IMG/VR virus record: IMGVR_UViG_3300046028_008994
Strand: one strand, 5' to 3'
DNA from: a virus
DNA length: 64,000 nucleotides
Shown here piece by piece: positions 26,838 through 60,111 of the stretch. The notes under the pieces are model-generated. The model was not told the DNA's origin. It ran no database searches and saw only the letters and a program-made list of their open reading frames with translations. Within the stretch, counting starts at the first letter, position 1. Every line of letters begins with the position of its first letter. Position numbers and translations under genes: made by a program.

Positions 26838-27170
26838 ATGGCTAATTATAATGTTTCAGTTACACAAAGTATAGTAATACAACCAGCAAATATTTTAGCT
26901 AGTCAGGTAACAACTTATACTATATCAAATCCTTTAATTGGTTCTTCTTATTTTACATTAGAAACAGTAAGAAACAATGACGGATTTTATAATTCAACTT
27001 CTCCTAAAAACACCTCAGGTTCATTTTCATTAGGAACAGGATTAGCAGAATTAATACAATCAGATTATATAGCTTCAGTTATTGTAGCACCAGGAGGAGG
27101 TACATTAACGTTTACACCTGCTAATAATATAACAGGTTCTACTTTATATTTAAGAGGAACAGGAGCATAA
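26838..27170 (+). CDS. small beta-rich virion (decoration-like) protein
   Basis: T/S/G-rich beta pattern, MAN start, head operon. Confidence 0.5.
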   Translation: MANYNVSVTQSIVIQPANILASQVTTYTISNPLIGSSYFTLETVRNNDGFYNSTSPKNTSGSFSLGTGLAELIQSDYIASVIVAPGGGTLTFTPANNITGSTLYLRGTGA

Positions 27171-27192
27171 AAATTAACATATTTATAATAAA

Positions 27193-28416
27193 ATGGAAAA
27201 AACATTACAACAACAATATACTCTTATTAGAGAAGGTAAAGGAAATAAAGATCACTTTCTTAAACAAGCAAGAAATTTATTCCCAGAATTCATTACACCA
27301 GTTAATGATTATAATACTACAGTTCATATTTTAAAATCAAAAAGTATTTTAAGTGAAACCGCTATAGGAGGAGTAATCACTTCAAATCCAAATAAACCAG
27401 ATTGGTTTAAAATATTTGATACTAATTTAAAAGAAGCAGTAGGTGTTAAAAACACTAAAGAATATGGTGATCAAAACGAATTTGAAAAAATTGATAAACA
27501 AGTTCAAGATGCTTTAGATCATCAATTTGATAATAAAGATGATAAAAACATAGACAATGTTTATGGACAATCATTTTTAATGGGATACTATACTGAAATG
27601 AAAGATCCTAAAAACGCTGATAAAACAGTTGATGAATTAAAAGCTATTGTATTAAAAAACATGGTTAAAGACATCAATTATTATCATACTGAAGCATCAT
27701 TTGGTGTTAAAGAAATTGGATATACAAAAGATGTAGTTGGTGGTGGAGATGCAATAGCACCCAAAGGCAAATATAAATCATCAGGATATGGTGATATGCC
27801 TAAAGCTAAAGTTGTTAAAGAATCTTTAAATGAAGCTAAAAAATCAAACGTTCAAACTCGTATTAAAGATTTAGAAAAACAAAACGAAGTATTAGCTTTA
27901 GAATCTAAAATAGCATCATTGGATGAAGCAATTAATGAATTAACTCAAAAAGTATCATTATCTGAATCTGATGAGTTAACTGATATGATGGATCCTAAAA
28001 AAATTAATGAACTTAAAAAAGACATTAAAGTACTTGAAAAATACAAAATGACTTGTGAGAAAAAATTATCAAAATTAGGTGGTAAAAAAACCATAGTTGA
28101 TGAAAATAAAGATGAAGACTATGGTGGTTTAAATCCTGAAGATTATGATTTAATGGATGATGGTAGTATGGTTGATCCTGAAACAGGAAAAGTAGTTTGG
28201 AGCCCAACCAATGAAAAAATAACTGAAAACGAAAACGAAAATCCCCCTAACAAATATACATTTGTTGATAAAAAAGTAGTTAGAAGAATTAGTCCACAAA
28301 ATGGAGATAAATCATATGATATTCAATTTGATGATCGCACAGAAAAAACAATTTATGCAAGTCATGATGATTGGGATAAAATCAATTCTATATATCAAAA
28401 AGCTAAAAACGGATAA
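27193..28416 (+). CDS. putative prohead core/internal protein
   Basis: Motif CATATTTATA at 27178-87; many [ILV]xE sites; coiled coil; precedes the protease. Confidence 0.5.
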   Translation: MEKTLQQQYTLIREGKGNKDHFLKQARNLFPEFITPVNDYNTTVHILKSKSILSETAIGGVITSNPNKPDWFKIFDTNLKEAVGVKNTKEYGDQNEFEKIDKQVQDALDHQFDNKDDKNIDNVYGQSFLMGYYTEMKDPKNADKTVDELKAIVLKNMVKDINYYHTEASFGVKEIGYTKDVVGGGDAIAPKGKYKSSGYGDMPKAKVVKESLNEAKKSNVQTRIKDLEKQNEVLALESKIASLDEAINELTQKVSLSESDELTDMMDPKKINELKKDIKVLEKYKMTCEKKLSKLGGKKTIVDENKDEDYGGLNPEDYDLMDDGSMVDPETGKVVWSPTNEKITENENENPPNKYTFVDKKVVRRISPQNGDKSYDIQFDDRTEKTIYASHDDWDKINSIYQKAKNG

Positions 28417-28419
28417 TTA

Positions 28420-29028
28420 ATGAAACAAGTATTAATTGAAACTATACCGTTTAATGTATCTCCGATACAATTAACTGAAGGAATGAAAGCCCGTTCTGGT
28501 AATCCTTTAGTTGAAGGTATTTTAGCTACTGCCGAAGTAAAAAATGGTAATGGTAGATACTATTCTAAAGATTTATGGGAAAGAGAAATTAATAAATACA
28601 TGGATGTTGTTAAAGAAAATAGAGCAACAGGCGAGTTAGACCACCCAGAATCTACAATTATTAATCTAAAAAACGTATCTCATATTATTAGAGAAATTAG
28701 ATGGGACAACGATAAAGTAATAGGTAAAATAGAAATATTACCAACAACATCAGGTAACATATTAAAAGCTCTTATTGAAAACGGAGTTATGGTGGGTGTA
28801 TCATCTCGTGGAATGGGTAGTTTAAAAGAAATGAATGAAGGTACTTTAGAAGTACAAGATGATTTCGAACTATTATGTTGGGATTTCGTATCAACACCTT
28901 CAAACCCGGGCTCATATATGAATTTAGTAAGAGAAGGTAAGGAAAATAATATTATAAACCCATATAATAAGGTGAATTTATTATTAACCGAAATCTTATG
29001 TGCTAATGGTTCTTGTCCAATATTTTAA
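28420..29028 (+). CDS. gp21: prohead protease (T4 gp21-like)
   Basis: NGNGRYY, GELDHPE, VSH, GVSSRGMGS, DFVSTPS. Confidence 0.96.
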   Translation: MKQVLIETIPFNVSPIQLTEGMKARSGNPLVEGILATAEVKNGNGRYYSKDLWEREINKYMDVVKENRATGELDHPESTIINLKNVSHIIREIRWDNDKVIGKIEILPTTSGNILKALIENGVMVGVSSRGMGSLKEMNEGTLEVQDDFELLCWDFVSTPSNPGSYMNLVREGKENNIINPYNKVNLLLTEILCANGSCPIF

Positions 29029-29039
29029 ACAATAAAACT

Positions 29040-29195
29040 ATGAAAATAATAAACTCTTGGAAATCAAAAGCAAAACAATTCGATAAAATAGATATAACTG
29101 CAAGAATATCTTATTTGTCTATATTTGAATTAAATATAGATTTTTCTAAAAAATCTTACAGATTAGTAATATTAAATTTCGGTATTAACTCTTAA
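29040..29195 (+). CDS. small hypothetical protein (start revised to 29040)
   Basis: MKIINSWKSKAKQFDK..., A-rich leader, followed by a terminator. Confidence 0.5.
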   Translation: MKIINSWKSKAKQFDKIDITARISYLSIFELNIDFSKKSYRLVILNFGINS

Positions 29196-29222
29196 CCCCT
29201 CTCTGGATAGAATCCATTGATA

Positions 29223-29255
29223 GACCCTTCCCTAAAAAGAAGGGTTTCTTTTTTC
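29223..29255 (+). terminator. intrinsic terminator
   Basis: ACCCTTC/GAAGGGT stem followed by TTCTTTTTT. Confidence 0.75.
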
Positions 29256-29273
29256 GATTTTAGAAAAGGTGCA

Positions 29274-29393
29274 TATATGTATCGAGGAATATACGGTTCA
29301 TTTTATATCGTATCTATTTTAAATATTCTATTACGCTTCGATTTTATCTACAATAAGCGTATTTCCAACAAAACAATTTGAGGACAAAAAACA
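29274..29393 (+). promoter_or_regulatory. motif variant (TATATGTAT) and structured 5' leader of the scaffold-capsid operon
   Basis: Stems ATACGGT/ATCGTAT and TACGCTT/AAGCGTA, with outer GGAA/TTCC. Confidence 0.5.
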
Positions 29394-30455
29394 ATGACAA
29401 ACAGAGATTTGCTAAAAGAAGCAATCGCAGATGCCAAAGCAGTTAAAGAAACAGCTATCGCAAATGCAAAATTAGCTCTTGAAGAAACTTTCAACCCGTA
29501 TCTAAGAGAAAGATTAGCTGCAAAGTTAAACGAATTAGATGAAGCAGAAGAAGAAACAGAGTTAAAAGAAACAGAAGAAGTAATGGACGAAAATTATTCT
29601 GAAGATGATGACATGATGGAAGAAACCATGGAAGTGGAAAATGCAGAAATGGCAGCTGAAGCAGATACATTAGATCTAGAAGCTCTTCTAAGAGAATTAG
29701 ACGGTATTGAAGAAGACAAAACAGTCAACGCCGCAGGTTACGCTGAAGATGAAGATAACGATGATCACGGTAATCTAAACGAAGCTGAAGATGATGAAGT
29801 TGCTAAAGGTGAAGATGATGATGAAGATGAAAACATCAACATTGAAGACATGAGCACAGAAGATTTAGAATCATTTATCAAAGACGTAATCTCAGACATG
29901 GTATCAGCAGGTGAATTAGAAGCTGGTGAAGAAGGCGAAGAAGGCGGCGAAGAAGAAGATGTTATGAAAATGGATGATGAGGGTGATGATGAAGAAGAAA
30001 TTAACTTAGATGCTATAGTAGCTGAACTTAAAAAGAAACCAGTAACTAAAAAATCAAGTAAAGAAGATGATAAAGAAGACAAAGTTAAAAAGATGGAAAA
30101 AGAACTTAAAGAAGCTTATGACGCTTTAAGACTTGTTAAATCTGAATTAAACGAAGTTAACTTATTCAACGCTAAATTACTTTACACAAACAAAATCTTC
30201 AGAAACAAAAACTTATCTGAATCACAAAAAGTAAAAGTATTAGCAGCATTTGATAAAGCTGTTAACGTAAAAGAAGCTAAATTAGTATATGAAACATTAA
30301 GTGAAGGTTTAAAACAAACAAAAACTCCAGTTAACGAATCATTATTAAGAGGTGCGGCATCTAAAGTATCTGGTATTGCTCCAAAGAAACCAATTCTTGA
30401 AGTAAATGACCAATTAAACAGATGGCAAATATTAGCCGGTATCAAAAAAATATAA
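29394..30455 (+). CDS. gp22: prohead scaffold/core protein (T4 gp22-like)
   Basis: Highly acidic coiled coil directly upstream of the capsid gene; LNEVNLFNAKLLY; C-terminal RWQILAGI. Confidence 0.85.
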   Translation: MTNRDLLKEAIADAKAVKETAIANAKLALEETFNPYLRERLAAKLNELDEAEEETELKETEEVMDENYSEDDDMMEETMEVENAEMAAEADTLDLEALLRELDGIEEDKTVNAAGYAEDEDNDDHGNLNEAEDDEVAKGEDDDEDENINIEDMSTEDLESFIKDVISDMVSAGELEAGEEGEEGGEEEDVMKMDDEGDDEEEINLDAIVAELKKKPVTKKSSKEDDKEDKVKKMEKELKEAYDALRLVKSELNEVNLFNAKLLYTNKIFRNKNLSESQKVKVLAAFDKAVNVKEAKLVYETLSEGLKQTKTPVNESLLRGAASKVSGIAPKKPILEVNDQLNRWQILAGIKKI

Positions 30456-30482
30456 CAATAAAAAAACAAAACAATTAAAACA

Positions 30483-32216
30483 ATGTCAAACGTACATCAA
30501 TTATTAGAAAGCGCAGCAGGAAACTGGAAATCACTACAAAGTGATGCTGCTAAATTAGCTTCTAAATGGACTAAAACAGGTCTATTAGAAGGCTTAACTA
30601 CTGTGGACAGTAACAATATGTCCCTTTTATTAGAAAACCAAGCAAAACAATTAGTAACAGAAACTAACACTGTTGCTTCAAACTCTGGATTCACTTCTGG
30701 TACACAAGGTGAAAACTGGGCTGGTATTGCATTACCATTAGTAAGAAAAGTATTCGGAACTATCGTAGCTAAAGAATTCGTTTCTGTTCAACCAATGAAC
30801 ATGCCTTCTGGTTTAGTATTCTTCTTAGATTTCCAATACGGAAACAACAAAAATCCATTTACTGCAGGTTCTTCTTTATATGGTAACAGAAATGCTTCTG
30901 GTCAATATCCATTTGCTACTCCAGCAGCTGAAGGCGGTTTATACAACCCAGCAAACAAATTTACTTACTCTACTAACCAATTCTCAGCTTCTGTTCCATT
31001 AACTGGATCTACTGCTGGTGGTGTTTTACCTACTATTGGTGCTGGTACTGGTTCAGTAGTTACAGCATCATGGGCTGAATTAAATTTTGATTCTGAATAT
31101 TCAGCATCAGTAATTGCAAACAGAATATACAAAGTAACTGTTGCTACAGCTTCTGTATTAACTAACTTTGATCCAGATGCAGTAAGAGGTTTCACTTTAG
31201 TATCTGGTTCTACATTTACTGCTTCTAATATTTTACCTCAGTTTACAACTTATAACTATACAGCAGGAACTATTAGTTTCTTCTATACAGCTTCAGCTAC
31301 TTTAGGTGCTAATAATACTGCCGGTGCTTCTGCTACTATTTTCTATAACAAAGGTAATAACAGTAGTACATTATCTGGTAATGATGCTAGAGCTGATTTC
31401 GAAGCAGATAGAACAGACGTATCTGTACCTAACTCTTTAAGTAGTTCAAACATCGTAATCCCAGAAATTAATGTTAAAATGCAATCACAAGCCATCACTG
31501 CTAAAACTAAAAAGTTAAAAGCTGTATGGACTCCTGAGTTCGCTCAAGATTTAAGTGCTTACCAAAACATTGATGCTGAAGCTGAATTAACTAACATCAT
31601 GAGTGAGTATATTTCAATGGAAATTGACTTAGAAATCTTAGAAATGTTAATCGAAGATGCTGCAGCTGGTACTGAATACTGGTCAGCAATTAACAACCAA
31701 ACTATTTCAACCCAAGGTACTATAACTAACTTAGGAACTTCAGGTTATTATAACACTCAAGGTCAATGGTTCCAAACTTTAGGTACTAAAATCCAAAAAT
31801 TAAGCAACAAAATCCACCAATTAACTTTACGTGGAGGTGCTAATTTTATCGTAACTTCTCCAACAGTAGCTACTATCTTAGAATCAATCCCAGGATTTGC
31901 TTCTACAAGCAATGGTGAAGCTGATCAAATGGAATATGCTTTCGGTGTACAAAAAATTGGTACTGTAAACGGTCGTTACAAGGTTTACAAAAATCCTTAC
32001 ATGACTGAGAATTTGATGTTAATGGGTTACAGAGGTAGTCAGTTCCTAGAAACAGGTGCTGTATTTGCTCCGTACATTCCGTTAATCATGACTCCGTTAG
32101 TGTACGATCCAGAAACTTTCACTCCAAGAAAAGGTCTATTAACTCGTTACGCTAAGAAAATGTTAAGACCTGAATTCTACGCGAAAATCTATGTTAGTGG
32201 TTTAAACACTATCTAA
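30483..32216 (+). CDS. gp23: major capsid protein (T4 gp23-like)
   Basis: LLENQ, LPLVRKV, VSVQPMNMPSGLVF, AKTKKLKAVWTPEFAQDL, FAPYIPL, TFTPRKGLLTRY. Confidence 0.97.
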   Translation: MSNVHQLLESAAGNWKSLQSDAAKLASKWTKTGLLEGLTTVDSNNMSLLLENQAKQLVTETNTVASNSGFTSGTQGENWAGIALPLVRKVFGTIVAKEFVSVQPMNMPSGLVFFLDFQYGNNKNPFTAGSSLYGNRNASGQYPFATPAAEGGLYNPANKFTYSTNQFSASVPLTGSTAGGVLPTIGAGTGSVVTASWAELNFDSEYSASVIANRIYKVTVATASVLTNFDPDAVRGFTLVSGSTFTASNILPQFTTYNYTAGTISFFYTASATLGANNTAGASATIFYNKGNNSSTLSGNDARADFEADRTDVSVPNSLSSSNIVIPEINVKMQSQAITAKTKKLKAVWTPEFAQDLSAYQNIDAEAELTNIMSEYISMEIDLEILEMLIEDAAAGTEYWSAINNQTISTQGTITNLGTSGYYNTQGQWFQTLGTKIQKLSNKIHQLTLRGGANFIVTSPTVATILESIPGFASTSNGEADQMEYAFGVQKIGTVNGRYKVYKNPYMTENLMLMGYRGSQFLETGAVFAPYIPLIMTPLVYDPETFTPRKGLLTRYAKKMLRPEFYAKIYVSGLNTI

Positions 32217-35327: not shown

Positions 35328-35337
35328 AATATTTATA
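35328..35337 (+). promoter_or_regulatory. late-gene motif AATATTTATA
   Basis: Directly after the terminator, before the neck operon. Confidence 0.72.
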
Positions 35338-35348: not shown

Positions 35349-35771
35349 ATGGCAATTTTTACCTTAAAAATAATAGAACAATTAACACTTAATGGAGATG
35401 ATGTCGGATCTTCTGTTACTCAAACAATTAATAATATTAATTTTATGGATAATAGAATACTAAATATCCCTTCAGGATCTGTAACAACTATATTTTCATT
35501 AGATAATTTACCTGGAGCTGGTACTTTTGTAAGCAGTAGTTTTCAATATGGTAGAGTTACAAATAATTCAACTACAGTACCTGTTAAATTAATTGTATCT
35601 TCTTCAACAGAAGCTATGAGTTTTTTAATAGCAACAGGAAGTTCATTTATACTTTCTACAAGTAAAATAACAGGTAGTACTTCAGGTTTAAACTTTAGTG
35701 ATATAAAATCAATAAAAGTTGAACCATCAGGTAGTGTTGCTTCAATAGAATATTACGTAATAACAAACTAA
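35349..35771 (+). CDS. small beta-rich virion protein
   Basis: S/T-rich; heads the neck operon. Confidence 0.55.
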   Translation: MAIFTLKIIEQLTLNGDDVGSSVTQTINNINFMDNRILNIPSGSVTTIFSLDNLPGAGTFVSSSFQYGRVTNNSTTVPVKLIVSSSTEAMSFLIATGSSFILSTSKITGSTSGLNFSDIKSIKVEPSGSVASIEYYVITN

Positions 35772-40387: not shown

Positions 40388-40391
40388 CAAA

Positions 40392-44459: not shown

Positions 44460-44481
44460 TAAATAAAGTTATAAATAAAGT

Positions 44482-45645: not shown

Positions 45646-45647
45646 CT

Positions 45648-45657
45648 AATATTTATA
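45648..45657 (+). promoter_or_regulatory. late-gene motif AATATTTATA
   Basis: Before ATG 45665. Confidence 0.7.
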
Positions 45658-45664
45658 ATAAACA

Positions 45665-47338: not shown

Positions 47339-47545
47339 ATGAAAGTAATTAGTAAGACGGAGTCATTTCTATATCTATCAGATGGTGGAGATTGGGCATT
47401 ACAAGTTGGTAACGAAAGTTTTGAGATACTACCACAAGCAGGTGGTTTGGTATATCAATCGGGAGTTAATCTTGACAATTTAGCTAACCTAATCATAGAG
47501 GCAAAAGAACACGCAATACAAAATGAAATAATATGGCAGCAATAA
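47339..47545 (+). CDS. small hypothetical protein
   Basis: First ORF of the GC-richer module; motif CATATTTATA at 47285-94. Confidence 0.5.
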   Translation: MKVISKTESFLYLSDGGDWALQVGNESFEILPQAGGLVYQSGVNLDNLANLIIEAKEHAIQNEIIWQQ

Positions 47546-48381: not shown

Positions 48382-49190
48382 TGGCACTAACAGACTTTGA
48401 TGAATATGTAGAAAAGCTAAAAGAAAATCGTGTTGCAGATTTTCAGCTATCCACATCAATCGCTAGAACTTTGCGATTGAACGCAAGTTGGCAATCTTTT
48501 AATCCTGCACCTGCCGTACCTACTACAAGCGTTGCTCTTAATAAGGATTCTGCACAATCAATGGGACCTATCCCTGACATATCAACAGGGCGACTTACAT
48601 TTTTGGGCGGTAGATTTAATACTTCAACATTTGGCGCAGGCGGTATGCTTTTAGTTGATTTGTTAAATGTTAGCGGAGGACTGAATGCTACTTTAACAAC
48701 AGCTCAAACAACCAACTTACCAACCGCACCATTAACAAGATATACATCGGGTGAGGGAGTTATGGCAGGGATAGTAGTTTATACACAAGTAGGAAACACA
48801 GTTACAACGGTAACAATAAGCTACACAAATTCAGCGGGTGTGAGTGGTAGAACATCTACTGCCACAACAATTGGTGCAGGTTTTTATAGAGAAGTAGGAT
48901 TGTTAATTCCAATACCATTACAAGCAGGTGATACAGGTGTGGAAAGTATTGAATCAGTAACCGTTACTGCCACCACAGGAACGGCAGGCAATTTTGGGGT
49001 GTGTATGTTCAAGCCTTTAGCAATGATTTCATTGGAAAGTGCAACAGGTGCAATGCCATTAGATTCAGTTAGTACAGGTTGCATTATCGGTTCTTTGGCA
49101 GAAATAGACCCTGATGCTTGCCTTGCAATTAGTGTATTTTCTGCAGTATCAACATCACTAACAGGTGCTATAATTTTAACAGAAGCATAA
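48381..49190 (+). CDS. putative virion protein, paralogue B
   Basis: Paralogue of 47533; TAATG coupling. Confidence 0.6.
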   Translation: MALTDFDEYVEKLKENRVADFQLSTSIARTLRLNASWQSFNPAPAVPTTSVALNKDSAQSMGPIPDISTGRLTFLGGRFNTSTFGAGGMLLVDLLNVSGGLNATLTTAQTTNLPTAPLTRYTSGEGVMAGIVVYTQVGNTVTTVTISYTNSAGVSGRTSTATTIGAGFYREVGLLIPIPLQAGDTGVESIESVTVTATTGTAGNFGVCMFKPLAMISLESATGAMPLDSVSTGCIIGSLAEIDPDACLAISVFSAVSTSLTGAIILTEA

Positions 49191-49706: not shown

Positions 49707-49762
49707 TAAAAAATAATACATTAAGTTTTAAAAAATCAATATTTTTTATATATTTATAATAA

Positions 49763-50560
49763 ATGGCTTTAAATCTTTCAACAACAGGTATAGTAGACGG
49801 GCAGATAATAAATGCAGCTCAAATAACTCAAAGTATAGACGCTTTAACAGGAACGGAAGCATATGATATCACCATCTCAGGTTCTTTTACTTTAGTAGGA
49901 ACAACAGGTAGTGGAACTTTTAACCGTTCAATTCAAACATTACAAGTAGAACCAAACACAACGATTCCATTAACTGATAGAGAATATAATATAGCTTTTT
50001 TTAACTCAACATCTTCAACTCCTACACCGTTAAAATGGAGTGGAACAGGTCCTTCTTTTAATCCGGTTACAGAAACATTAACAGTAACAAATTTTCAAGG
50101 TACTGCTTCATTTTGTGCTACTTCATCTTTAGCACAAACAGCATCTTTTTTAAGTGGTTTTCCATTCCAATTTGCTCCTTCATATGTTGATATTAGTAGT
50201 GGTACAAATCCACCAATTAATCCTTATAATGTGGTTGGAGGAAATAAATCATTTATATTTTTAAATCAAATAGGAACTGGATCTGTAGGATTGTTATTTT
50301 TACCATCATCACAAGATGGACAAATAATTAATTTTGCTGTAAGTAATGTACAATCAACTTCATTAGATTATTCACAAATTAGTATTACTGCTTCAGGTGT
50401 AGCTATTTTTGGATATAACAATTTAAATATTCCTTTAGGAGGAAGTGATACATTAGATGATTTAACGTTAAATCCAGCAACAGATAATCGCAATGGGTTT
50501 CAATTTATGTACAAAACAACACCAGTCCCAGGATGGTATTATATATCTTACGGACAATAA
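49763..50560 (+). CDS. putative tail/fibre virion protein
   Basis: Motif TATATTTATA at 49749-58; AYDITISGS; S/T-rich. Confidence 0.55.
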   Translation: MALNLSTTGIVDGQIINAAQITQSIDALTGTEAYDITISGSFTLVGTTGSGTFNRSIQTLQVEPNTTIPLTDREYNIAFFNSTSSTPTPLKWSGTGPSFNPVTETLTVTNFQGTASFCATSSLAQTASFLSGFPFQFAPSYVDISSGTNPPINPYNVVGGNKSFIFLNQIGTGSVGLLFLPSSQDGQIINFAVSNVQSTSLDYSQISITASGVAIFGYNNLNIPLGGSDTLDDLTLNPATDNRNGFQFMYKTTPVPGWYYISYGQ

Positions 50561-50888: not shown

Positions 50889-52613
50889 ATGGTAGAAACA
50901 TTAATATCTCCTGGTGTTTTAGCGATTGAAAACGATCAATCATTCATAACCCAACAACCAGTAACCGTAGGTGCGGCTATTATTGGTCCAACAGTTAAAG
51001 GTCCTGTAGAAGTTCCAACAATTGTTACTTCTTACAGTGATTATCAAAACAAATTTGGTACTACTTTTATTAGTGGTAGTCAAGTTTATAGCTATTTTAC
51101 ATCAATAGCTGCTTACAACTATTTTAACAACGGTGGTCAAACATTGTTAGTTTCTCGTGTTGTAAGTGGTACTTTCAGTGAAGCAACTACTGAAGTAGGC
51201 GCAACTGGTTTAAATGGTATCACAAATGCTAACACATCAGCTTCTTTAGTATTAGCTACTTTATCTGAAGGTACTATTATGAATAGTACAGGTAGTGAAG
51301 ATGCTAGTGGTGCTTTAGCTAGTGGATCAGCAGATAATATCAGATGGCAAATTACAAACAACGATACTGCTTCAGGTACTTTCTCATTATTAATTAGACA
51401 AGGTGATGATACTGTAAACGATCCTAGTATATTAGAAACTTGGACTAACTTATCAATGGACCCTACCGCTCCAAATTTTGTAACTAAAGTAATAGGTGAT
51501 TCTAAATCAAACTACAATTCTACTACAAATCAAATAGAAGTTTCAGGTTCAACTCCTAATTTCTCAAGATACGTAAGAGTAAAATCAGTATTAACTCCAA
51601 CTCCATTCTATTTTGATAACAACGGTGTTGCAAAATCACAATTTACAGGTTCTATTCCAGTAAATAAAAGTGGTTCATTCGGTAATGCTACTGGTAATTT
51701 ATTTGGTGCTGGCGCTGCTTATTATGAAACTATAACAAGTGGTAACAATTCACAAGGTCTTCCAAGTGCAAGTTACAACAACATGATTAGTTTGTTATCT
51801 AATCAAGATGATTATAGATTTAACGTATTAATAGCTCCTGGTTTATTCAATTCATTACAAACTTCTCAAGTTACAAGTGTAATTAATAACACTCAAAACA
51901 GAGGTGATAATATTTTTGTACTTGATTTAGTTCCTTATAATGTAAATACAATAGCATCAGTAACAGCACAATCAACTTCAAGAAATACTTCATATGCTGC
52001 TTCATATTGGCCTTGGCTTCAAACAATTGACCCAGATTCAGGACAACGTGTTTGGGTACCAGCTTCAACAATGGTAGCAGGTGTGTATGCATTTAATGAT
52101 AGCGTAAGTGAGCCTTGGTTTGCACCTGCAGGTATTAATAGAGGTGGATTATCTACTGTTATTAGAGCAGCTCAAAAATTATCACAAACTCAAAGAGATA
52201 CTTTATATAATAATAAAGTAAATCCAATTGCAACATTCCCAGGTACTGGAGTTGTAGTATATGGACAAAAAACATTACAAACAAAAGCATCTTCATTAGA
52301 TAGAGTAAATGTTCGTAGATTATTAATTTCATTAAAATCATATATTTCTCAAGTTGCTAATAACTTAGTATTTGAACAAAATAGTATAGCTACTCGTAAT
52401 GCTTTCTTAGCACAAGTAAATCCATACTTAACATCAGTTCAACAAAGACAAGGATTATTTGCATTTAAAGTAGTAATGGATGATTCAAACAATACGCCAG
52501 ATGTAATTGATAGAAATCAATTAGTAGGTCAAATCTATTTACAACCAACTAAAACTGCTGAATTTATTTACTTAAACTTCAACATTTTACCTACAGGAGT
52601 AAGTTTCGAATAA
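50889..52613 (+). CDS. gp18: contractile tail sheath protein
   Basis: SPGVLAIEND, GPTVKGP, YWPW, WFAPAGINRG, VYGQKT, RVNVRRL, LQPTKTAEFI. Confidence 0.97.
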   Translation: MVETLISPGVLAIENDQSFITQQPVTVGAAIIGPTVKGPVEVPTIVTSYSDYQNKFGTTFISGSQVYSYFTSIAAYNYFNNGGQTLLVSRVVSGTFSEATTEVGATGLNGITNANTSASLVLATLSEGTIMNSTGSEDASGALASGSADNIRWQITNNDTASGTFSLLIRQGDDTVNDPSILETWTNLSMDPTAPNFVTKVIGDSKSNYNSTTNQIEVSGSTPNFSRYVRVKSVLTPTPFYFDNNGVAKSQFTGSIPVNKSGSFGNATGNLFGAGAAYYETITSGNNSQGLPSASYNNMISLLSNQDDYRFNVLIAPGLFNSLQTSQVTSVINNTQNRGDNIFVLDLVPYNVNTIASVTAQSTSRNTSYAASYWPWLQTIDPDSGQRVWVPASTMVAGVYAFNDSVSEPWFAPAGINRGGLSTVIRAAQKLSQTQRDTLYNNKVNPIATFPGTGVVVYGQKTLQTKASSLDRVNVRRLLISLKSYISQVANNLVFEQNSIATRNAFLAQVNPYLTSVQQRQGLFAFKVVMDDSNNTPDVIDRNQLVGQIYLQPTKTAEFIYLNFNILPTGVSFE

Positions 52614-52660: not shown

Positions 52661-53149
52661 ATGGCAGTATTAGATCCAAACGAAATATTTTTCACAGCAT
52701 TTGAACCAAAACAACAAAATAGATTTATTATGTATGTTGACGGTATACCTTCGTATATAATTAAGGGAGTAAACGCTGTGACGCTAACCCAAGATAGTAT
52801 TCCTCTTAACCATATAAACGTACAACGTTTCGTTAAAGGTAAATCTAAATGGGGTGAAATCCAATTAACATTATTTGATCCAATTACACCTTCGGGTGCT
52901 CAGGCAGTAATGGAATGGGTACGTTTACATCACGAATCTGTAACAGGTAGAGATGGTTATTCTGACTTCTATAAGAAAGATTTAACAATAGATGTTTTAG
53001 GTCCAGTAGGTGATATTGTATCAGAATGGATTATTAAAGGTGCATTAATTACAAATGCTAACTTTGGTGATTATAGCTGGGATAATGAATCAACAGCACA
53101 AAATATCCAAATTACAGTACAACCAGATTATTGTGTATTAAACTTCTAA
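52661..53149 (+). CDS. gp19: tail tube protein
   Basis: EPKQQNRF, KGKSKW..I.LTL.D, YKKDL..DVLGP.G; synteny after sheath. Confidence 0.9.
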   Translation: MAVLDPNEIFFTAFEPKQQNRFIMYVDGIPSYIIKGVNAVTLTQDSIPLNHINVQRFVKGKSKWGEIQLTLFDPITPSGAQAVMEWVRLHHESVTGRDGYSDFYKKDLTIDVLGPVGDIVSEWIIKGALITNANFGDYSWDNESTAQNIQITVQPDYCVLNF

Positions 53150-53172
53150 TTAATAAAAATAATTTTAAAGAT

Positions 53173-53203
53173 AGCTCGCAATTTTTGCGAGCTTCTTTTT
53201 TTC
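53173..53203 (+). terminator. intrinsic terminator
   Basis: AGCTCGCA-ATTTT-TGCGAGCT followed by a T-run. Confidence 0.88.
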
Positions 53204-53246
53204 TTATATATTTATATAGGACAAAAAGTTATAATAAATAAAAATT

Positions 53247-53984
53247 ATGGAAGAAAACAAATTTAGTTTCCCAACAGAAATTGTAGATTTACCTTCAAAA
53301 GGTTTAATTTACCCTGAAACATCTCCTTTATCATCTGGAACAGTTGAAATGAAATACATGACAGCTAGAGAAGAAGATATATTAACAAATCAATCCTATA
53401 TTCAAAAAGGGACAGTACTTGATAAATTACTTGAATCCTTAATTGTAACAAAAGGAGTAAATGTTAAAGATTTAATTGTTGGAGATAAAAATGCATTATT
53501 CGTTGCAGCTCGTGTTTTAGGATACGGTAAAGATTATTCATTTAATTATGCTGGAGGAGAAATAACAGTTGATTTATCAAAAGTAGAAAATAAATCTTTT
53601 GATGAATCTCAATTCACTAAAGGAATAAATGAATTTTCTTATACTTTACCTCATTCTAATAATAAAATTACCTATAAAATATTAACAGGAAATGATGAAA
53701 CAAATATTGATAAGGAAATTGAAGGATTAAAGAAAATTAACAAAGATTTCTCGCCAGAATTATCTACTCGTTTAAAATATATGATAACTTCAGTTGAAGG
53801 TGATAGAGATAATAAATCTATAAGAGAATTTGTTGATAATTTTTTATTAGCTAAAGATTCACGTGCTTTAAGAGAATACATTAAAAAAACACAACCTGAT
53901 GTTAATTTAACTTTCATAACTGATAGCGGAGTGGAGGTCGCTATCCCAATAGGGATTAACTTTTTTTGGCCTGACGCTGGATAA
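53247..53984 (+). CDS. tail assembly chaperone / baseplate hub assembly protein (T4 gp26-like)
   Basis: VDLPSKGLIYP, MKYMTAREEDIL, ends NFFWPDAG; between tube and tape measure. Confidence 0.75.
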   Translation: MEENKFSFPTEIVDLPSKGLIYPETSPLSSGTVEMKYMTAREEDILTNQSYIQKGTVLDKLLESLIVTKGVNVKDLIVGDKNALFVAARVLGYGKDYSFNYAGGEITVDLSKVENKSFDESQFTKGINEFSYTLPHSNNKITYKILTGNDETNIDKEIEGLKKINKDFSPELSTRLKYMITSVEGDRDNKSIREFVDNFLLAKDSRALREYIKKTQPDVNLTFITDSGVEVAIPIGINFFWPDAG

Positions 53985-54276
53985 TGCTCCTTTATTTCGT
54001 ATGAGTTTGTTTAAACAAATTCACGAAATAGTATTTCATGGTAATGGTGGTTTTGATTGGAATACAATTTACAATATGCCAATATGGTTACGTAAATATA
54101 CATTTTTACAAATTCAAAAACATTATGAAGATGAAGCATCAGAATATGAAAAAGCACAAAACGGAAGTAAAACAGTATTAATGGATTCATCAGGTAAAGT
54201 TAATAAATCCGAATTTAATAAAACTGCTAAACCTATTACACCACCAACATACATTACGAAGGCCTCTAAAAAATAG
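53962..54276 (+). CDS. second chaperone ORF, probably reached by frameshift (first ATG at 54001)
   Basis: Frame open from 53953 across the T7 run; YNMPIWLRKY motif typical of chaperone second halves. Confidence 0.6.
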   Translation, partial: FFGLTLDNAPLFRMSLFKQIHEIVFHGNGGFDWNTIYNMPIWLRKYTFLQIQKHYEDEASEYEKAQNGSKTVLMDSSGKVNKSEFNKTAKPITPPTYITKASKK

Positions 54277-54284
54277 AGGCTTTC
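54261..54284 (+). terminator. hairpin/terminator
   Basis: GCCTCTA-AAAAA-TAGAGGC followed by TTT. Confidence 0.55.
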
Positions 54285-54294
54285 AATATTTATA
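54285..54294 (+). promoter_or_regulatory. late-gene motif AATATTTATA
   Basis: Before the tape measure gene. Confidence 0.7.
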
Positions 54295-54313
54295 ATAAAT
54301 AATAAATAGACAG

Positions 54314-57055
54314 ATGCCTACTCCTGAAGAAATAAAAAAACAAAAAGAATTAAATGATCTTTTAGTTAAAGAAAACGAAATTCTTAGAGATAGATTAAAG
54401 CTTCAATCTGAAAGTTATGATTTATCTTCAACACTAGTAGAAGACTTAAAAGATATTTTAGGTATTGAATCTAGAAGAAGTGTTTTTGAATCTGGCATAT
54501 TAGATATTAATAAAAAAATAAATAGAGCTATACGTGATCAAAGATTAGAATTTGAAGAAATAGAAGATATTCAAAAACAAATTTCTAGAAATATTATCAC
54601 AATTAATAAAGCTAAATTATTTGAAACCAGTTTAGAAAGTCAATTAAATGCTCTTGGTAAACAAAAAGCAGAAAAAGATGCTAACAGAATAAACAATATT
54701 GAAAATTTTAATAAAGCTGTTGTTAAACAATATAAAGAATTAAGTAATATATTATCTTTATCTAAAGATGAAAGAGATCTTCGTAAAGATGAAATAAAAG
54801 AACTTAGAAATAAAATATATACCAATGAAAAACTAATAGAAAGTAATTTTAAAAATATGAGTCTTTCTTCTAAACAGTTTTATATTACTAAAAAACAACG
54901 AGAAGAATTAGAAAAAATAAATGTTGAATTAAAAAAAGAAGAAGAAAAAAGAAAAGAAATACAAAAACAATTAGGTATTTTTGGAGGTGCGTTAAAAGGA
55001 TTAGAAAGAATCCCAGTATTAAAAAATTTAGGTATTGATTTTAAAGAAATTCGTGAAGAAGCTGAAAATACTACTAAAGCAACAAAAAGTGGCGTTCAAG
55101 GATTAGGAGCAGGATTAAAATCATTAGGTAATCAACTTAAATCATCACTTACAAATCCAGCAAACATAACTTTATTTGTTATACAACAAATAATTGATGC
55201 TCTTATAAAATCAGATAAGGCAACAGGAGAATTAGCAAAAGCATTTGGTACTTCATATAATGAAGCAAATAATTTAAGAAATGAACTTAATAATATAGCT
55301 AATTCAAGTGGAGATATTAATATTACAACTTTAGCATTACAAAAATCATTAATAGCTGTTAATAAAGAATTTGGAACAGCAACAATGCTTAGTGGAGAAT
55401 TATTAAAAGATTTTACTCAATTAACAGAAGTAGCTGGTTACACAAATGAAACTGCAGCTCGTCTTTCTAAAATATCAGTAGCAACAGGAACAGATTTATC
55501 AGATAATACAGCTAAAATATTAGGTCAAGCTAAAGCATTTAATATAACTAATAAATTAGCTTTAAATGAAAAAGAAATTGTTGAAGATGTAGCTAAAGCA
55601 TCTAAAGCAACAACTTTATCTTTAGGAATGCATTCAGGTAAATTAGCTCAAGCCGTGGCTCAAGCAAAAGCATTAGGAGCAAATTTAGAAAAAGTAGAAG
55701 CAATATCTCAATCTTTACTTAATTTTGAATCATCTATATCCTCAGAATTAGAAGCTGAGTTAATAACAGGTAAAGATTTAAATCTAGAGCGTGCTCGTAT
55801 GTATGCTTTAAATAATGATATAGCTGGAGTAGCAAGAGAAATAGCAGGACAAATAGGTACAGCTGCTGATTTTACTAATACAAATGTTATAGCACAAGAA
55901 GCATTAGCTAAATCTGTTGGTATGACTAGAGAAGATTTAGCAGCTTCATTAATTGAAAGAGAAGCTTTAGCTAAAATTGGATTAAAAGATGCTGCAGCCG
56001 CTAAAGAAAAATTTGATGATTTAGTTAAACAATATGGTTATGAAAAAGCTATTCAAAAATTAGGTGATGAAAAATATGGTCAACAGTTAGCTTCTCAATC
56101 TATTCAAGAACGTTTTAATGCTTCGATTGAAAAATTAAAAGAAATATTTGTTAGTTTAGCAGGCCCTATATTAAAAGTGATATCTCCTATAGTAGATATA
56201 TTAGCCCCAATATTATCAGTTATTGGTGGTATAGTAGGAAATATTGCAGGTGCTTTTGGAAAAATATTAGGCCCCCTTGCTGCTGGTTATGCTATATTAA
56301 AAAGTACACAACTTGTCTTAACATCAATTTCAGCAATACAAGCATTTATAACCAAATCCCAAACAACTCAACTAGGATTAGGAGGTAGTATTTTAGCTAA
56401 CTTAGGTTTTCAAAGAGCAGTATTAGCATATAATTTAATTATGAAAAGAGAAGATAATAAATTATCAGCAATTTCAGCCTTTTTATCTCAAACAATATTA
56501 GGTAGTATAATAGCTCAAGGAGCTGCTATATTAAAAAATATAGGAAGAGCTACTTTAGAATTAATTATAAAAAATCAAATAGCATTAGCTACTTTAACTT
56601 CAAGTGCTGCTTTAACTTTTGGGGTAGGGGCAGCAGTAGCAGTAGCAGCAGCATTAGCTGGATATGCTGTTATGAAAGCTGTAGCAGCAGATGATTTAAT
56701 ATCATCACCTGAAGGATATGGTAAACGCACATTATTAGCACCAGAAGGTGCAATAGCGTTAAACGATAAAGATACAATAATAGCTGGTACTGATTTAGGA
56801 GGCAATAAATCATCTTCTCCATTATCACAACCAATTAATAATAATAAAATAAACAAACCAATAAATCCACCACCACTAACTATTGATTATAATAAAATGG
56901 CAGCAGCCGTAGCAATATCAATAGCTAAAGAAATAAATAACAGACCAGTTCAAGTTTCAGTAGAAATGGATGGTGAAAAAGTAGCTAAAGGTGTAGGTAA
57001 TAACTCAACTAAATTTAGTAATTCTATGAGCACAAATACTTTTCAAGTTCAATAA
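54314..57055 (+). CDS. tape measure protein
   Basis: Long helical Ala/Leu/Lys-rich protein with hydrophobic C-terminal region; follows the chaperones. Confidence 0.85.
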   Translation: MPTPEEIKKQKELNDLLVKENEILRDRLKLQSESYDLSSTLVEDLKDILGIESRRSVFESGILDINKKINRAIRDQRLEFEEIEDIQKQISRNIITINKAKLFETSLESQLNALGKQKAEKDANRINNIENFNKAVVKQYKELSNILSLSKDERDLRKDEIKELRNKIYTNEKLIESNFKNMSLSSKQFYITKKQREELEKINVELKKEEEKRKEIQKQLGIFGGALKGLERIPVLKNLGIDFKEIREEAENTTKATKSGVQGLGAGLKSLGNQLKSSLTNPANITLFVIQQIIDALIKSDKATGELAKAFGTSYNEANNLRNELNNIANSSGDINITTLALQKSLIAVNKEFGTATMLSGELLKDFTQLTEVAGYTNETAARLSKISVATGTDLSDNTAKILGQAKAFNITNKLALNEKEIVEDVAKASKATTLSLGMHSGKLAQAVAQAKALGANLEKVEAISQSLLNFESSISSELEAELITGKDLNLERARMYALNNDIAGVAREIAGQIGTAADFTNTNVIAQEALAKSVGMTREDLAASLIEREALAKIGLKDAAAAKEKFDDLVKQYGYEKAIQKLGDEKYGQQLASQSIQERFNASIEKLKEIFVSLAGPILKVISPIVDILAPILSVIGGIVGNIAGAFGKILGPLAAGYAILKSTQLVLTSISAIQAFITKSQTTQLGLGGSILANLGFQRAVLAYNLIMKREDNKLSAISAFLSQTILGSIIAQGAAILKNIGRATLELIIKNQIALATLTSSAALTFGVGAAVAVAAALAGYAVMKAVAADDLISSPEGYGKRTLLAPEGAIALNDKDTIIAGTDLGGNKSSSPLSQPINNNKINKPINPPPLTIDYNKMAAAVAISIAKEINNRPVQVSVEMDGEKVAKGVGNNSTKFSNSMSTNTFQVQ

Positions 57056-57060
57056 TTTAT

Positions 57061-57070
57061 AATATTTATA
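57061..57070 (+). promoter_or_regulatory. late-gene motif AATATTTATA
   Basis: Before the baseplate operon. Confidence 0.7.
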
Positions 57071-57086
57071 ATCAAAAACAAATATC

Positions 57087-57374
57087 ATGGGACTATTAGA
57101 TAAATTAAAAACTCAAGGAACACCATTCAGTGTAGACAATGGAGCAACACCACCTATTAATCCAGGTGCAACAAAACAATCAAAATTACATGCTAATGGA
57201 GGACAACCTTCATATTCATTAAATGGGAGTAATTTTATAGATGTAAATGCAGCATATAATGAATATAGAGATGGTGTACCAAATATACTACCACAACCAT
57301 CACAGTTAGATCTAAATGGAACAATACCAAAAGTAGCTGGTAAATTACCTTATTTAGATAACTTACCTAAATAA
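57087..57374 (+). CDS. small virion protein
   Basis: MGLLDKL...PSQLDLNG...YLDNLPK; heads the baseplate operon. Confidence 0.55.
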   Translation: MGLLDKLKTQGTPFSVDNGATPPINPGATKQSKLHANGGQPSYSLNGSNFIDVNAAYNEYRDGVPNILPQPSQLDLNGTIPKVAGKLPYLDNLPK

Positions 57375-57378
57375 TTAA

Positions 57379-60111
57379 ATGGGGTTAATAAACCTACTTA
57401 CAGATCCAAAAAACTTTAAGTTTTATAATGGCGGACAAGGTTATACCGGCAACGGAAATCAGCCTGGTTTGACTAATATCCCTTATGGTAAAGATAGAAT
57501 TGATGGAGGAAGTAGTGGCCAACCCTATATTCAAATTCCAATTCCTGATGACATAAGTAATTTAGGAGCTGTTAATAAAGATTTTATTTTAAGAGGAGGA
57601 ACTTTAGCAGTTTCAAATTCTGCTACTGATGCTTTAAGATTAACAAAAATGTTTGGTGATCTAAAATCACCTAGTGGTTTACTATTTGCTTCTAAACAAC
57701 AGATATTATCACGCACAGCTGTTCGTACTCAAGCAAGTGGTAAAGGATTAAATGAAGGTATTTATAATCCATTAACTACTATAGCACAAGCTGGTGTAGT
57801 AGCATTTGGAATTCATTTAAATAAACAATCATTAATAATACCATATTCAGAAACAGTAACTAATAATCAACAGCCTGAAGATAATAGGTTATATAGTTTA
57901 TACGATGAAAAAATAATAAATAAAAGAGGCTCTCTTCCAGGAATTAAAGGATTCGCAACTGACCCAATTAGTTTAAATCCATTATTACTTTCATACTCAG
58001 GAGGACCAGGATCTACTTTAGGAGTAGGAAAAACTAATATAAGATTTGCAGATCAAAGAACAGGTGTAAATAATTCATTAGCCAAAACTAATCCAATATA
58101 TTTTTACAAGGGATCTTCAAGATCTATTGATACATTAAATAATAATCAAATATCACAAGGTGGTATACTTATTGATCCTAGCCAATCATGGACAACTACA
58201 GGTAAATATAAAATTTATGATGTTTCAAAATCAAAATATATAAATTATACATCATCTGTTTTACCTTTATTTGATGTAAACACACCACAAGAAGCAGGAA
58301 CAATTCTTCAAAATAATACTGATATACCTCAATACACTAAAGGTTCTGATTTTATATGGGGTAAAAAGAAAAAATTTTCTAGTAATTATTTAAATTATGT
58401 TACAATTCAAAATTCACGTAATATTGAAAATAATAAATCTTTAGAGATTGAACGTGAACAATCCCCTTATATAAAAAATAATAAATTAGTTGACGAAATA
58501 GTTCCTGAAAATCAAAGAATAATAGGAGTTGGTGGAAGTTTTATACAAAAAAACATAAAAACAGAACCTAATACTTTAAATATAGACGCTATACAAGAAA
58601 GTGGTTTAATATTTAATGTTAGTCAATCATGGACTTATGATTCTTATCAAATAAAATCAGGTAGTTTTGGAAAACAAGATTTACCTAAATTTAATGTAAA
58701 AGTTTCTCAAAATCAAGGAACTATTTTACAAATAACTGGTGAAAAATCATGGAATCCACAATATGATATTGCAACTAAAAATACTTCTAGTTTAACAAAT
58801 AGAGTTAGTAACACATATCAAACACTAGCTTCTGGGTCTAAAATTAACAACAGTGGAAGTTATAATAATGTATATAATTCTGGTTCTTTAAAAAATAATC
58901 AATTAATTAGGAATAATAATACTTATACTTATTCTCAAACAGATTTAATAGATGAAAAAAATAATCCTGGTAAATTATCTTTTTCACCTGCAATTCGAGA
59001 TTTTAGAGCAGTTCTAAGAGATAAATTAGAAAAAGTGTCAGCAGGTTCTAAACAAAAAGCTATAGATGCTGGTCAATTAACAGAAGCTCCAAATTATATA
59101 GATAAAAGTATAGAAAAAAGAGTTAAAATAGGTGGTTTAAATGGTGATGGCCCTGGAGCACGAGCAGGTAAAAGCTATGCTAATTATACTAATGGTGTAG
59201 TATACTCAGGAGGAAGAACAGGCCCACTAGATGATATAAATGCACTACTTAGCTATAAAGATACAGAAGCAGACGATACAATATCAGATTTATGTAATTT
59301 TAGAATAGCAATTATAGACAATAATACTCCTACTTTAAAAACATTTTTACATTTTAGAGCATTTTTAAATTCAATATCAGATGCATATACTGCAGAATGG
59401 AATCCAACAAAATATCTAGGAAGAGGTGAAAGTTTTTATAATTATAATGGGTTTACTCGACAAATGTCATTATCTTGGACAGTAGCAGCTCAATCTAAAC
59501 AAGAGTTAATTCCAATGTATAAAAGATTAAATTATTTAGCATCATCTTTAACTCCTGAGTATAGTCCTAATGGTTATATGAGAGGTAATATGGTTCAATT
59601 TACTATTGGAGGTTATATATATGAACAACCAGGTATAATTACTAGTTTAACGTATGATATTAGTGAAGATACAACATGGGAAATAGGAATAGATGTTGAT
59701 GGAGAAAGAGACACAAAAATTAAACAATTACCCCATATTCTTAAAGTAACATGTAATTTTACACCTATACAAAAATTCAGACCTGAAGTACAATATTTTG
59801 ATAATGATTATAAACATTATATATCATTAGAAGATCCTACAGGAAATGAATATGGTAGTACTGCTCCTGATGTTACACCGACAGATGTAACACCTGAAGC
59901 AAACGAAACGAATACAGATGAAAAAAGATTAATAAATCCTAAAATTGAAAATCCAAAATATATTCCTCCTCCACCTCAAACATCAGTACCCCCACGTTAT
60001 AGTATTCCTGATGACAAATATTCAAATCCTGAATTATTTATCCCACAAAAACCAAGGAACGGATTTGGCGGCGGAGGCTTCGGCGGAGGCGGTGCAGGAG
60101 GAAGTTGGTAA
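57379..60111 (+). CDS. baseplate protein with C-terminal tube-initiator-like domain
   Basis: FRAFL..ISD.Y.AEW...YLGRGE.FY.Y.GF.R tube-fold motif; synteny. Confidence 0.65.
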   Translation: MGLINLLTDPKNFKFYNGGQGYTGNGNQPGLTNIPYGKDRIDGGSSGQPYIQIPIPDDISNLGAVNKDFILRGGTLAVSNSATDALRLTKMFGDLKSPSGLLFASKQQILSRTAVRTQASGKGLNEGIYNPLTTIAQAGVVAFGIHLNKQSLIIPYSETVTNNQQPEDNRLYSLYDEKIINKRGSLPGIKGFATDPISLNPLLLSYSGGPGSTLGVGKTNIRFADQRTGVNNSLAKTNPIYFYKGSSRSIDTLNNNQISQGGILIDPSQSWTTTGKYKIYDVSKSKYINYTSSVLPLFDVNTPQEAGTILQNNTDIPQYTKGSDFIWGKKKKFSSNYLNYVTIQNSRNIENNKSLEIEREQSPYIKNNKLVDEIVPENQRIIGVGGSFIQKNIKTEPNTLNIDAIQESGLIFNVSQSWTYDSYQIKSGSFGKQDLPKFNVKVSQNQGTILQITGEKSWNPQYDIATKNTSSLTNRVSNTYQTLASGSKINNSGSYNNVYNSGSLKNNQLIRNNNTYTYSQTDLIDEKNNPGKLSFSPAIRDFRAVLRDKLEKVSAGSKQKAIDAGQLTEAPNYIDKSIEKRVKIGGLNGDGPGARAGKSYANYTNGVVYSGGRTGPLDDINALLSYKDTEADDTISDLCNFRIAIIDNNTPTLKTFLHFRAFLNSISDAYTAEWNPTKYLGRGESFYNYNGFTRQMSLSWTVAAQSKQELIPMYKRLNYLASSLTPEYSPNGYMRGNMVQFTIGGYIYEQPGIITSLTYDISEDTTWEIGIDVDGERDTKIKQLPHILKVTCNFTPIQKFRPEVQYFDNDYKHYISLEDPTGNEYGSTAPDVTPTDVTPEANETNTDEKRLINPKIENPKYIPPPPQTSVPPRYSIPDDKYSNPELFIPQKPRNGFGGGGFGGGGAGGSW

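Follow-up and report, generated by a model that had tools for sequence, protein, structure and literature searches.

Why should one short serine-containing tripeptide recur in the capsid, the tail sheath, the fibres and several further virion proteins of a single phage? The question is raised by the IMG/VR virus record IMGVR_UViG_3300046028_008994, of which 94.7 kb of genome (G000) was analysed; the stretch described here, referred to as the window, comprises 64,000 nucleotides (nt) and corresponds to G000:C1:776-64775 on the minus strand. The record has a GC content of 29% and every gene of the window lies on the plus strand. The window encodes a capsid protein of the T4 gp23 type, a T4-type portal, a terminase, a prohead protease and a contractile sheath, together with three very long Ser/Thr-rich fibres and a DUF5122 propeller; the packaging and prohead genes were matched by Pfam (Portal_T4, Terminase_6N and Peptidase_S77). 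According to the original prediction, the tripeptide [S/T]-[G/A/S]-S has accumulated convergently on the exposed surfaces of the virion as a glycosylation sequon. We find that the motif is a selected surface feature and no by-product of composition; its candidate role as a glycosylation acceptor is weighed below.

Expected motif counts were obtained from 1000-2000 shuffles of each protein and, additionally, from shuffles inside blocks of 20 and 40 residues. By whole-protein as well as local shuffles, [ST][GAS]S lies approximately threefold above expectation in outward-facing proteins. Within the window, the excess is carried by the following features (lengths in amino acids, aa).

30483..32216, plus strand: major capsid protein of the T4 gp23 type, 577 aa (Pfam Gp23, PF07068, E 3e-77)
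35349..35771, plus strand: 140-aa protein before the neck genes; 6 motif sites, promoter motif of the late type at 35329
38777..40387, plus strand: fibre protein 1, 536 aa, with TGSF tetrads and SSS[FY]A[LIV] hexads forming the N-terminal half
40392..44459, plus strand: fibre protein 2, 1355 aa, with TGSF tetrad and SSS[FY]A[LIV] hexad repeats
44482..45645, plus strand: seven-bladed DUF5122 β-propeller (Pfam DUF5122, E 2e-95, 7 stretches)
45665..47284, plus strand: fibre protein 3, 539 aa, with tetrad and hexad repeats as in fibres 1 and 2
49763..50560, plus strand: 265-aa protein encoded ahead of the sheath gene; 8 motif sites, promoter motif of the late type at 49750
50889..52613, plus strand: tail sheath, 574 aa (Pfam Phage_sheath_1, PF04984, and Phage_sheath_1C, PF17482, residues 298-566)

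The capsid protein contains ten motif sites compared with 2.8 expected (p 0.0005): FSASV at residue 168, LTGST at 174, GTGSV at 189, VTASW at 194, YSASV at 207, ATASV at 222, VSGST at 241, FTASN at 246, YTASA at 269 and LSSSN at 320. The sheath has nine sites compared with 3.4 expected (p 0.009), and all of the peptide strings that had originally been quoted for the capsid and the sheath are present in them. The 265-aa protein exceeds its expectation of 2.0 sites by the same measure (p 0.0005), as does the 140-aa protein its expectation of 1.8 (p 0.008-0.02); the latter has no Pfam or PHROG family match. The propeller carries five sites compared with 1.1 expected (p 0.005), in the form of a YSGS string that occupies an identical position in five of the seven blades, as had been noted originally, with YSGF in the other two. 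The propeller gene is wedged between two fibre genes, and its blades, of about 51 residues, are nearly identical. When the five external non-fibre proteins of the window are pooled, 38 sites are found compared with 10.9 expected. The counts for fibre proteins 1, 2 and 3 are 43, 149 and 57, compared with 16, 49 and 23 expected, respectively. For all of these proteins the enrichment persists under the 20- and 40-residue block shuffles. Eight tail or baseplate proteins encoded upstream of the window are likewise enriched, for example a 1710-aa protein with 39 sites compared with 8.7 expected.

The remaining features show no significant excess.

21905..30455, plus strand: terminase, portal, prohead protease, scaffold-like protein and neighbours (26838-27170 excluded), no excess
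26838..27170, plus strand: 110-aa protein, motif excess not significant
47533..49190, plus strand: GC-richer two-gene module, rich in T, G and A, internal negative control
52661..57055, plus strand: tube, tube-like protein and tape measure, no excess
57379..60111, plus strand: 910-aa protein, weak, non-significant motif excess

Terminase, portal, protease, scaffold, tube and tape measure together contain three sites compared with 5.9 expected; the tube itself has none (0.15 expected), the tube-like protein none (0.5) and the tape measure two (2.3). The cargo proteins and early region contain four sites compared with 7.5 expected, and the two genes of the GC-richer module one and none (0.96 and 1.8 expected) despite their richness in T, G and A. 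The scarcity that had been described for the terminase, portal, scaffold, tube, tape measure, cargo proteins and GC-richer module is borne out as a lack of excess over the shuffles. Enrichment had also been proposed for the 110-aa and 910-aa proteins, where it did not reach significance (two sites versus 1.0, p 0.27, and six versus 2.9, p 0.07, respectively), while it held for the capsid, sheath, fibres, propeller and the 140-aa and 265-aa proteins. At its C-terminus (nt 59800-60111), the 910-aa protein has a Pro-rich stretch and then a tail rich in Gly (GFGGGGFGGGGAGGSW).

What, precisely, is enriched? In an unbiased tripeptide scan of the non-fibre virion proteins, SGS ranks first (49 versus 10.1 expected), TGS third (36 versus 10.1) and TAS fourth (27 versus 8.4), with TSS also clearly enriched (31 versus 12.8). 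The true core of the motif is SGS, TGS, TAS and TSS; of the triplets listed originally, SAS and SSS are weak outside the fibres (10 versus 7.9 and 22 versus 13.8, respectively). SGT, TGT, TAT, SAT, NGS, TVS and SVS are flat in the same scan. In 21 external proteins (8,904 aa), [ST][GAS]S occurs 403 times compared with 131 expected, whereas [ST][GAS]T is depleted (56 versus 98), so that the third position demands Ser and avoids Thr. Since Thr is normally favoured over Ser in β-strands, generic strand propensity fails to explain this preference. I, F, Y, V and L are preferred at the flanking positions -3, -1, +3 and +5; in full, the motif reads hydrophobic-[S/T]-[G/A/S]-S-hydrophobic, and positions -3 and +5 likewise tend to be hydrophobic. 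Such a pattern would fit an amphipathic β-strand with the small residue directed inward and two hydroxyls, two residues apart, directed outward. In codon usage the motif serines match the background, with TCN and AGY mixed, and outside the fibres no 9-mer of the DNA is dominant; it is therefore the protein, not the DNA, that is constrained. Two known sequons are not enriched in the 21 external proteins, namely N-x-S/T (145 versus 170 expected) and D-[ST]-[ALIVMT] of Bacteroidota (25 versus 30.8), from which the motif had been said to differ.

The capsid, sheath, 140-aa and 265-aa proteins, propeller and large baseplate proteins show no BLAST similarity to one another or to the fibres; shared segments were detected by BLAST only among the fibre-like proteins and in one baseplate pair. 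An inserted domain common to the enriched proteins is thereby ruled out at the BLAST level and, because the proteins lack detectable mutual similarity, the motif has accumulated convergently in at least eight folds. The repeat unit of the fibres is the motif itself. Six fibre-like proteins (those at 38777-47284 and upstream open reading frames, ORFs, at L001:3675-7138, minus strand) share repeat modules of 60-70% identity in differing orders, which suggests an exchange of modules among fibre genes. A tblastn search with a fibre protein gave no match among cultured phages, probably owing to masking of the repeats by the low-complexity filter, and a comparison of a fibre with solved structures gave no meaningful match.

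Where the proteins can be aligned with T4, the motif appears to be restricted to outward-facing parts. The capsid sites are all located at residues 168-322 (nt 30984-31448), in the variable middle of the protein. The capsid profile aligns with T4 gp23 residues 95-212 on one side of this middle and 249-478 on the other and, because the alignment flanks it, the motif zone corresponds to the I-domain and its linkers. The I-domain of T4 forms protrusions on the outer capsid surface (PMC9546572). In an alignment of the capsids of relatives (68 distinct sequences), every motif site falls inside residues 135-325, where column conservation is 52-76% compared with 90-99% elsewhere. The sheath sites are all located at residues 62-295 (nt 51072-51773), with none in the conserved C-terminal core, and residues 357-574 align with T4 gp18 435-652 (E 4e-43). 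Extra sheath domains would be expected to face outward. An AlphaFold2 model of the capsid protein, based on 63 close homologues, has a mean predicted local distance difference test (pLDDT) score of 43 and an unusable core; the I-domain zone is its best part and is β-rich, with several motif sites placed in strands or at strand ends at this low confidence.

Is the motif maintained in relatives? By its capsid, the closest cultured relative of the phage is Flavobacterium phage immuto (53% identical), followed by Microcystis phage Mel-JY01 (46.5%), the uncultured 484-kb LR756508 (44.9%) and Rhodothermus phage RM378 (33.9%). At least 318 IMG/VR stretches encode relatives, and the lineage originates from lake and brackish water. 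In the best 80 of these at least 318 stretches, with capsids 71-83% identical, each capsid has 5-13 motif sites, with a mean of 9.2 compared with 2.8 expected. Some sites are kept in 80-90% of the sequences, with exchange of S and T at position 1 and of G, A and S at position 2, while others are lost and replaced by new ones at different columns; several are positionally shared with Mel-JY01 and RM378. G001, which is the closest of the large relatives (149 kb; its capsid is 83% identical, and it is syntenic with this genome), repeats the pattern, with 73 versus 21 and 189 versus 70 sites in its virion modules and 20 versus 32 in the remainder. The deficit in its non-virion proteins (20 versus 32.5, p 0.012) was discounted as avoidance of the motif, as T4 has a similar deficit of [ST]GS (18 versus 28).

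Observed and expected counts of SGS and TGS combined were compared over the whole proteomes of eight genomes: 117/39 in G001, 117/48 in immuto, 99/36 in Mel-JY01, 53/19 in RM378, 123/85 in LR756508, 78/64 in S-SKS1, 57/51 in Syn9 and 18/27 in T4. In T4, [ST][GAS]S itself occurs 95 times over the whole proteome compared with 90 expected, and not once in gp23. T4, Syn9 and S-SKS1 thus rule out a general trait of T4-like virions. The cyanophages mildly over-use SGT and TGT (52/32 and 59/32 in S-SKS1; 32/24 and 44/29 in Syn9), which has the look of a Thr form of the fibre element. A generic [ST]-G-[ST] fibre element therefore probably exists, and in this lineage it takes a Ser-specific form that is employed far outside the fibres. 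Tail and fibre proteins carry the excess in immuto and Mel-JY01, whose capsids do not clearly show it.

Which enzymes might act on such a motif? As proposed at the outset, glycosyltransferases (GTs) were sought elsewhere and their co-occurrence with the motif was followed across relatives, and an operon was found in six relatives and immuto. In G001 it is a tight operon at 99.1-108.3 kb encoding a small ORF, two GT4-type enzymes of 477 aa and 441 aa, a 151-aa protein and a GT2, and continuing with two Methyltransf_24 proteins, a TylF-type methyltransferase and a second GT2. Both GT4 paralogues match the Glycos_transf_1 C-terminal domain (PF00534, E 2e-6 and 3e-6), and EX7E is kept in both and in the homologues from immuto, Mel-JY01, RM378 and LR756508. 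The 477-aa enzyme is present in all six large relatives (G001-G006; 71-79% identity), and its best match among solved structures is the GT4 enzyme B736L of chlorovirus NY-2A (E 2e-7), a protein of unknown function (PMC5408694). Immuto has the core (two GT4s, the 151-aa protein and GT2) in syntenic arrangement at 47-57% identity. In Mel-JY01 both GT4s and the GT2 are retained (37-51% identity), while the 151-aa protein gave no match there; a single GT4 and a single GT2 were found in RM378 (27-28% identity), and one GT4 only in LR756508. Among cultured phages the 441-aa enzyme was found only in immuto and Mel-JY01, and T4, Syn9 and S-SKS1 have no homologue of the core. The depositors of immuto annotated five GTs, two WecE-type aminotransferases, a 'pilin glycosylation protein', an epimerase and a methyltransferase; from the gene sets of immuto and G001 we therefore distinguish a conserved GT core and a lineage-variable sugar-tailoring part. 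Among the eight genomes compared, those with the core (G001, immuto, Mel-JY01 and RM378) have a strong SGS and TGS excess and those without the complete core (LR756508, S-SKS1, Syn9 and T4) do not, and the core tracks the excess across lineages. A GroEL-type chaperonin (Pfam Cpn60_TCP1, E 2e-66) is encoded a few kilobases upstream of the GT operon in G001 (94088-95731; L164:2088-3731), and immuto has a 61% identical copy.

The timing of expression of the GT core may be read from the word ATATTTATA, which occurs 22 times in the window (482-57070), always on the plus strand, compared with 7.5 times expected. Its copies, for example those at 21877, 23470, 35329, 38755, 45649, 52629 and 54286, lie immediately before genes, many of them virion genes, such as those for terminase, portal, tube, tape measure and two of the three fibres; neither the capsid gene nor the sheath gene has the word in its exact form. 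In G001 it stands 3-36 nt upstream of most virion genes. By analogy with T4 TATAAATA, it appears to behave as a late promoter. ATATTTATA also directly precedes the GT operon, with two copies in G001 and one each in G002-G006 and immuto, so that the core would be produced at the same time as the virion proteins. The DNA-modifying enzymes of T4 are early genes. No pathway for DNA glucosylation of the T4 hydroxymethylcytosine type was detected in G001, whose ThyA homologue carries the uracil-type Asn and in which BLAST found no match to T4 gp42, alpha-gt or beta-gt; other DNA hypermodifications are possible there. A second word, CGTACATTCA, has nine sites at 114346-148309 of G001, eight of which lie 5-21 nt before a start, all at non-virion genes; it is perhaps a promoter of the early or middle class, or else a cassette joint. 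Beyond the virion genes, the window begins with a SegE-like GIY-YIG homing endonuclease (33-482; Pfam E 4e-25), and a second GIY-YIG domain and an I-HmuI-like domain are found elsewhere in it. Two metabolic-looking genes follow the capsid gene (32358-33988), one of the phosphatidylserine decarboxylase family (Pfam E 5e-21).

How, then, should the motif be read? We favour the reading that it is a glycosylation acceptor and that the virion undergoes sequon-type O-glycosylation, which we judge quite possible, though short of an even chance. The lineage would place a strand element on the outward-facing parts of its particle (capsid I-domain, outer sheath, fibres, propeller and baseplate periphery), and the motif serines would be the acceptor sites of an O-glycosylation system that the phage itself encodes, makes late in infection and runs in the cytoplasm. 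The conserved core of two GT4-type enzymes and one GT2 would act, then the lineage-variable sugar-tailoring genes, and the assembled particle would be glycan-coated. We infer that the GTs act on protein, recognise the motif and are encoded by this phage's own genome. The wider proposal that a T4-like aquatic lineage (the lake clade, immuto, Mel-JY01 and perhaps RM378) runs its own general O-glycosylation, with a Ser-specific motif on exposed β-strands as the mark of every outward-facing virion protein, late GT4-GT4-GT2 priming, swappable tailoring cassettes and a variable glycan shield over head, tail and fibres, seems to us rather unlikely.

Several observations weigh against O-glycosylation. 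Pfam identified no GT in the window, as the original prediction had noted, nor among the approximately 92 proteins of the 94.7 kb of this genome. The core of the relatives matches only generic GT4 and GT2 models in NCBIfam and Pfam, so that its acceptor could be DNA or a host polymer, and it has replication genes as neighbours and lies some 60 kb away from the gene for the capsid protein. The genomes that bear it form approximately one clade; the co-occurrence amounts to about one independent contrast, plus the informative loss in LR756508. An excess in the capsid is seen only in the narrow lake clade, although the core is more widespread; the capsid of immuto, which has the core, shows none (3 versus 1.75). 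The motif Ser/Thr residues are only modestly more conserved than other Ser/Thr residues of the I-domain (0.61 versus 0.49, p 0.11). The proposed convergent accumulation on exposed surfaces holds as accumulation in at least eight unrelated proteins, while exposure of the capsid sites rests on T4 homology and not on coordinates, the model being too poor. The [ST]-G-T excess of the cyanophages suggests that the motif is the Ser variant of a generic fibre element, and structure alone can, to judge from the repeats, account for much of the raw fibre count.

The last two points lead to the alternative that the motif is structural only, a strand or turn element that builds fibres and outer β-domains, with the small residue packed tightly on the inside, Ser on the outside and nothing attached, the GT operon serving the modification of DNA or of the host envelope. 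This is a genuine but tentative possibility. The fibres are built of the TGSF tetrads and SSS[FY]A[LIV] hexads, from modules common to six fibre-like proteins; the hydrophobic flanks at -3, -1, +3 and +5 are those of an amphipathic strand, and the low-confidence capsid model places several sites in strands or at their ends. The positional conservation of several capsid sites out to Mel-JY01 and RM378 and the analogous SGT and TGT excess in S-SKS1 and Syn9 point the same way. A generic strand pattern is insufficient, however, as other polar-small-polar triplets are flat or depleted, and a purely structural element does not readily account for an excess in at least eight folds without detectable relation, for capsid sites that turn over while their number stays, for the missing excess in T4 or for the tracking of the GT core across lineages. 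A further suggestion is that the hydroxyl arrays, as Ser/Thr ladders on flat outer β-surfaces, are unmodified and function as such, either in putative weak, reversible binding of polysaccharide (host capsule, slime or another) or in making an uncharged, non-sticky particle in fresh water, in likeness to the Thr ladders of ice-binding proteins or to mucus-binding Ig-like decoration domains. The apparent confinement of the motif to outward-facing parts, the placement of both hydroxyls on the same strand face that the flanking pattern implies and the lake and brackish-water origin of the lineage would suit such a function, but the exclusion of Thr from the third position and the tie to the GT core are left unexplained, and we consider it improbable. 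Ser specificity would also be expected of another modification, namely phosphorylation or a phospho-form such as phosphocholine or phosphoglycerol; neither a kinase nor a transferase for phospho-forms was identified by Pfam in the 94.7 kb or the G001 island, and such a modification is very improbable. Finally, the enriched regions are rich in S, T, G and A, and the fibres contain DNA-level repeats, so that chance triplets arising from composition or from a repeated DNA word had to be considered. A composition artefact is ruled out by the survival of the excess in the 20-residue block shuffles and by the motif-free T/G/A-rich module at 47533..49190, and a DNA-level motif or repeat as the source by the mixed Ser codons and the lack of a dominant 9-mer outside the fibres. 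Chance or composition is excluded as the cause, and the probability left to an artefact of this kind is negligible.

To our knowledge, the only phage-particle proteins with demonstrated glycosylation to date are two from mycobacteriophages, which carry it on their C-terminal tails. If the acceptor reading is true, this would be the first 'general glycosylation system' of a phage with a readable sequon, covering head, sheath, fibres and baseplate; glycosylated virions would become predictable from sequence alone, and views of adsorption, host defence, grazing and particle stability in abundant freshwater phages would change. Even without attachment, a Ser-specific surface motif common to unrelated folds is an unexplained rule of phage surface design. 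A direct test is within reach, since immuto and Mel-JY01 are in culture and share the GT core.

How does the proposed system compare with those already described? Virion O-glycosylation in mycobacteriophages (Freeman et al. 2023) places glycans at the C-termini of capsid and tail-tube subunits, as summarised in PMC12619734. On that account, the two would be alike in that phage-encoded GTs decorate capsid or tail proteins in the cytoplasm before or during assembly. C-terminal acceptors of the mycobacteriophage type are not seen here: the capsid sites at 168-322 are internal and the tube is without sites. The candidate sites are instead dispersed, defined by a motif and present in nearly all outer proteins, and a further difference is the distance of about 60 kb between the GT genes and the capsid gene.

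Among bacterial systems, the general O-glycosylation of Bacteroidota uses the sequon D-[ST]-[ALIVMT] on many target proteins and works outside the cytoplasm. It resembles the system proposed here in its three-residue sequon and many targets, and Bacteroidota is the likely host phylum; it differs in that its sequon is not enriched and that it acts where phage particles are not assembled. In GtfA/GtfB of Gram-positive bacteria, a cytoplasmic GT4 glycosylates Ser in adhesin repeats of the S-x-S type, and the operon of the relatives likewise contains a tandem pair of GT-B proteins. A pair of this type is nevertheless not supported: no NCBIfam GtfA or GtfB model matched, the GtfA structure 4pqg matched only at E 0.0095, and both paralogues keep EX7E, so that they are not a catalytic and a non-catalytic partner. 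The acceptors here also look like folded β-domains and not like disordered repeats. The autotransporter heptosyltransferases Aah and TibC are cytoplasmic and recognise a strand-loop-strand motif in AIDA-I and TibA; the likeness would lie in Ser/Thr residues of a short structural element repeated along a β-helix, as opposed to a linear sequon. Pfam found no heptosyltransferase-type family in the G001 island.

Chloroviruses and giant viruses possess their own cytoplasmic glycosylation machinery, with non-canonical sites and methylated sugars (PMC5408694, PMC9614988). In chloroviruses, N-linkage to Asn predominates and one capsid protein alone bears the glycans; the hosts are eukaryotic and the similarity of the enzymes is limited to the GT4 C-terminal domain. 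B736L is the best match of the 477-aa GT, and the G001 island encodes three methyltransferases, including one of the TylF type. In their own cytoplasmic GTs, atypical sites and methylated sugars, the chloroviruses are the nearest conceptual analogue of the system proposed here.

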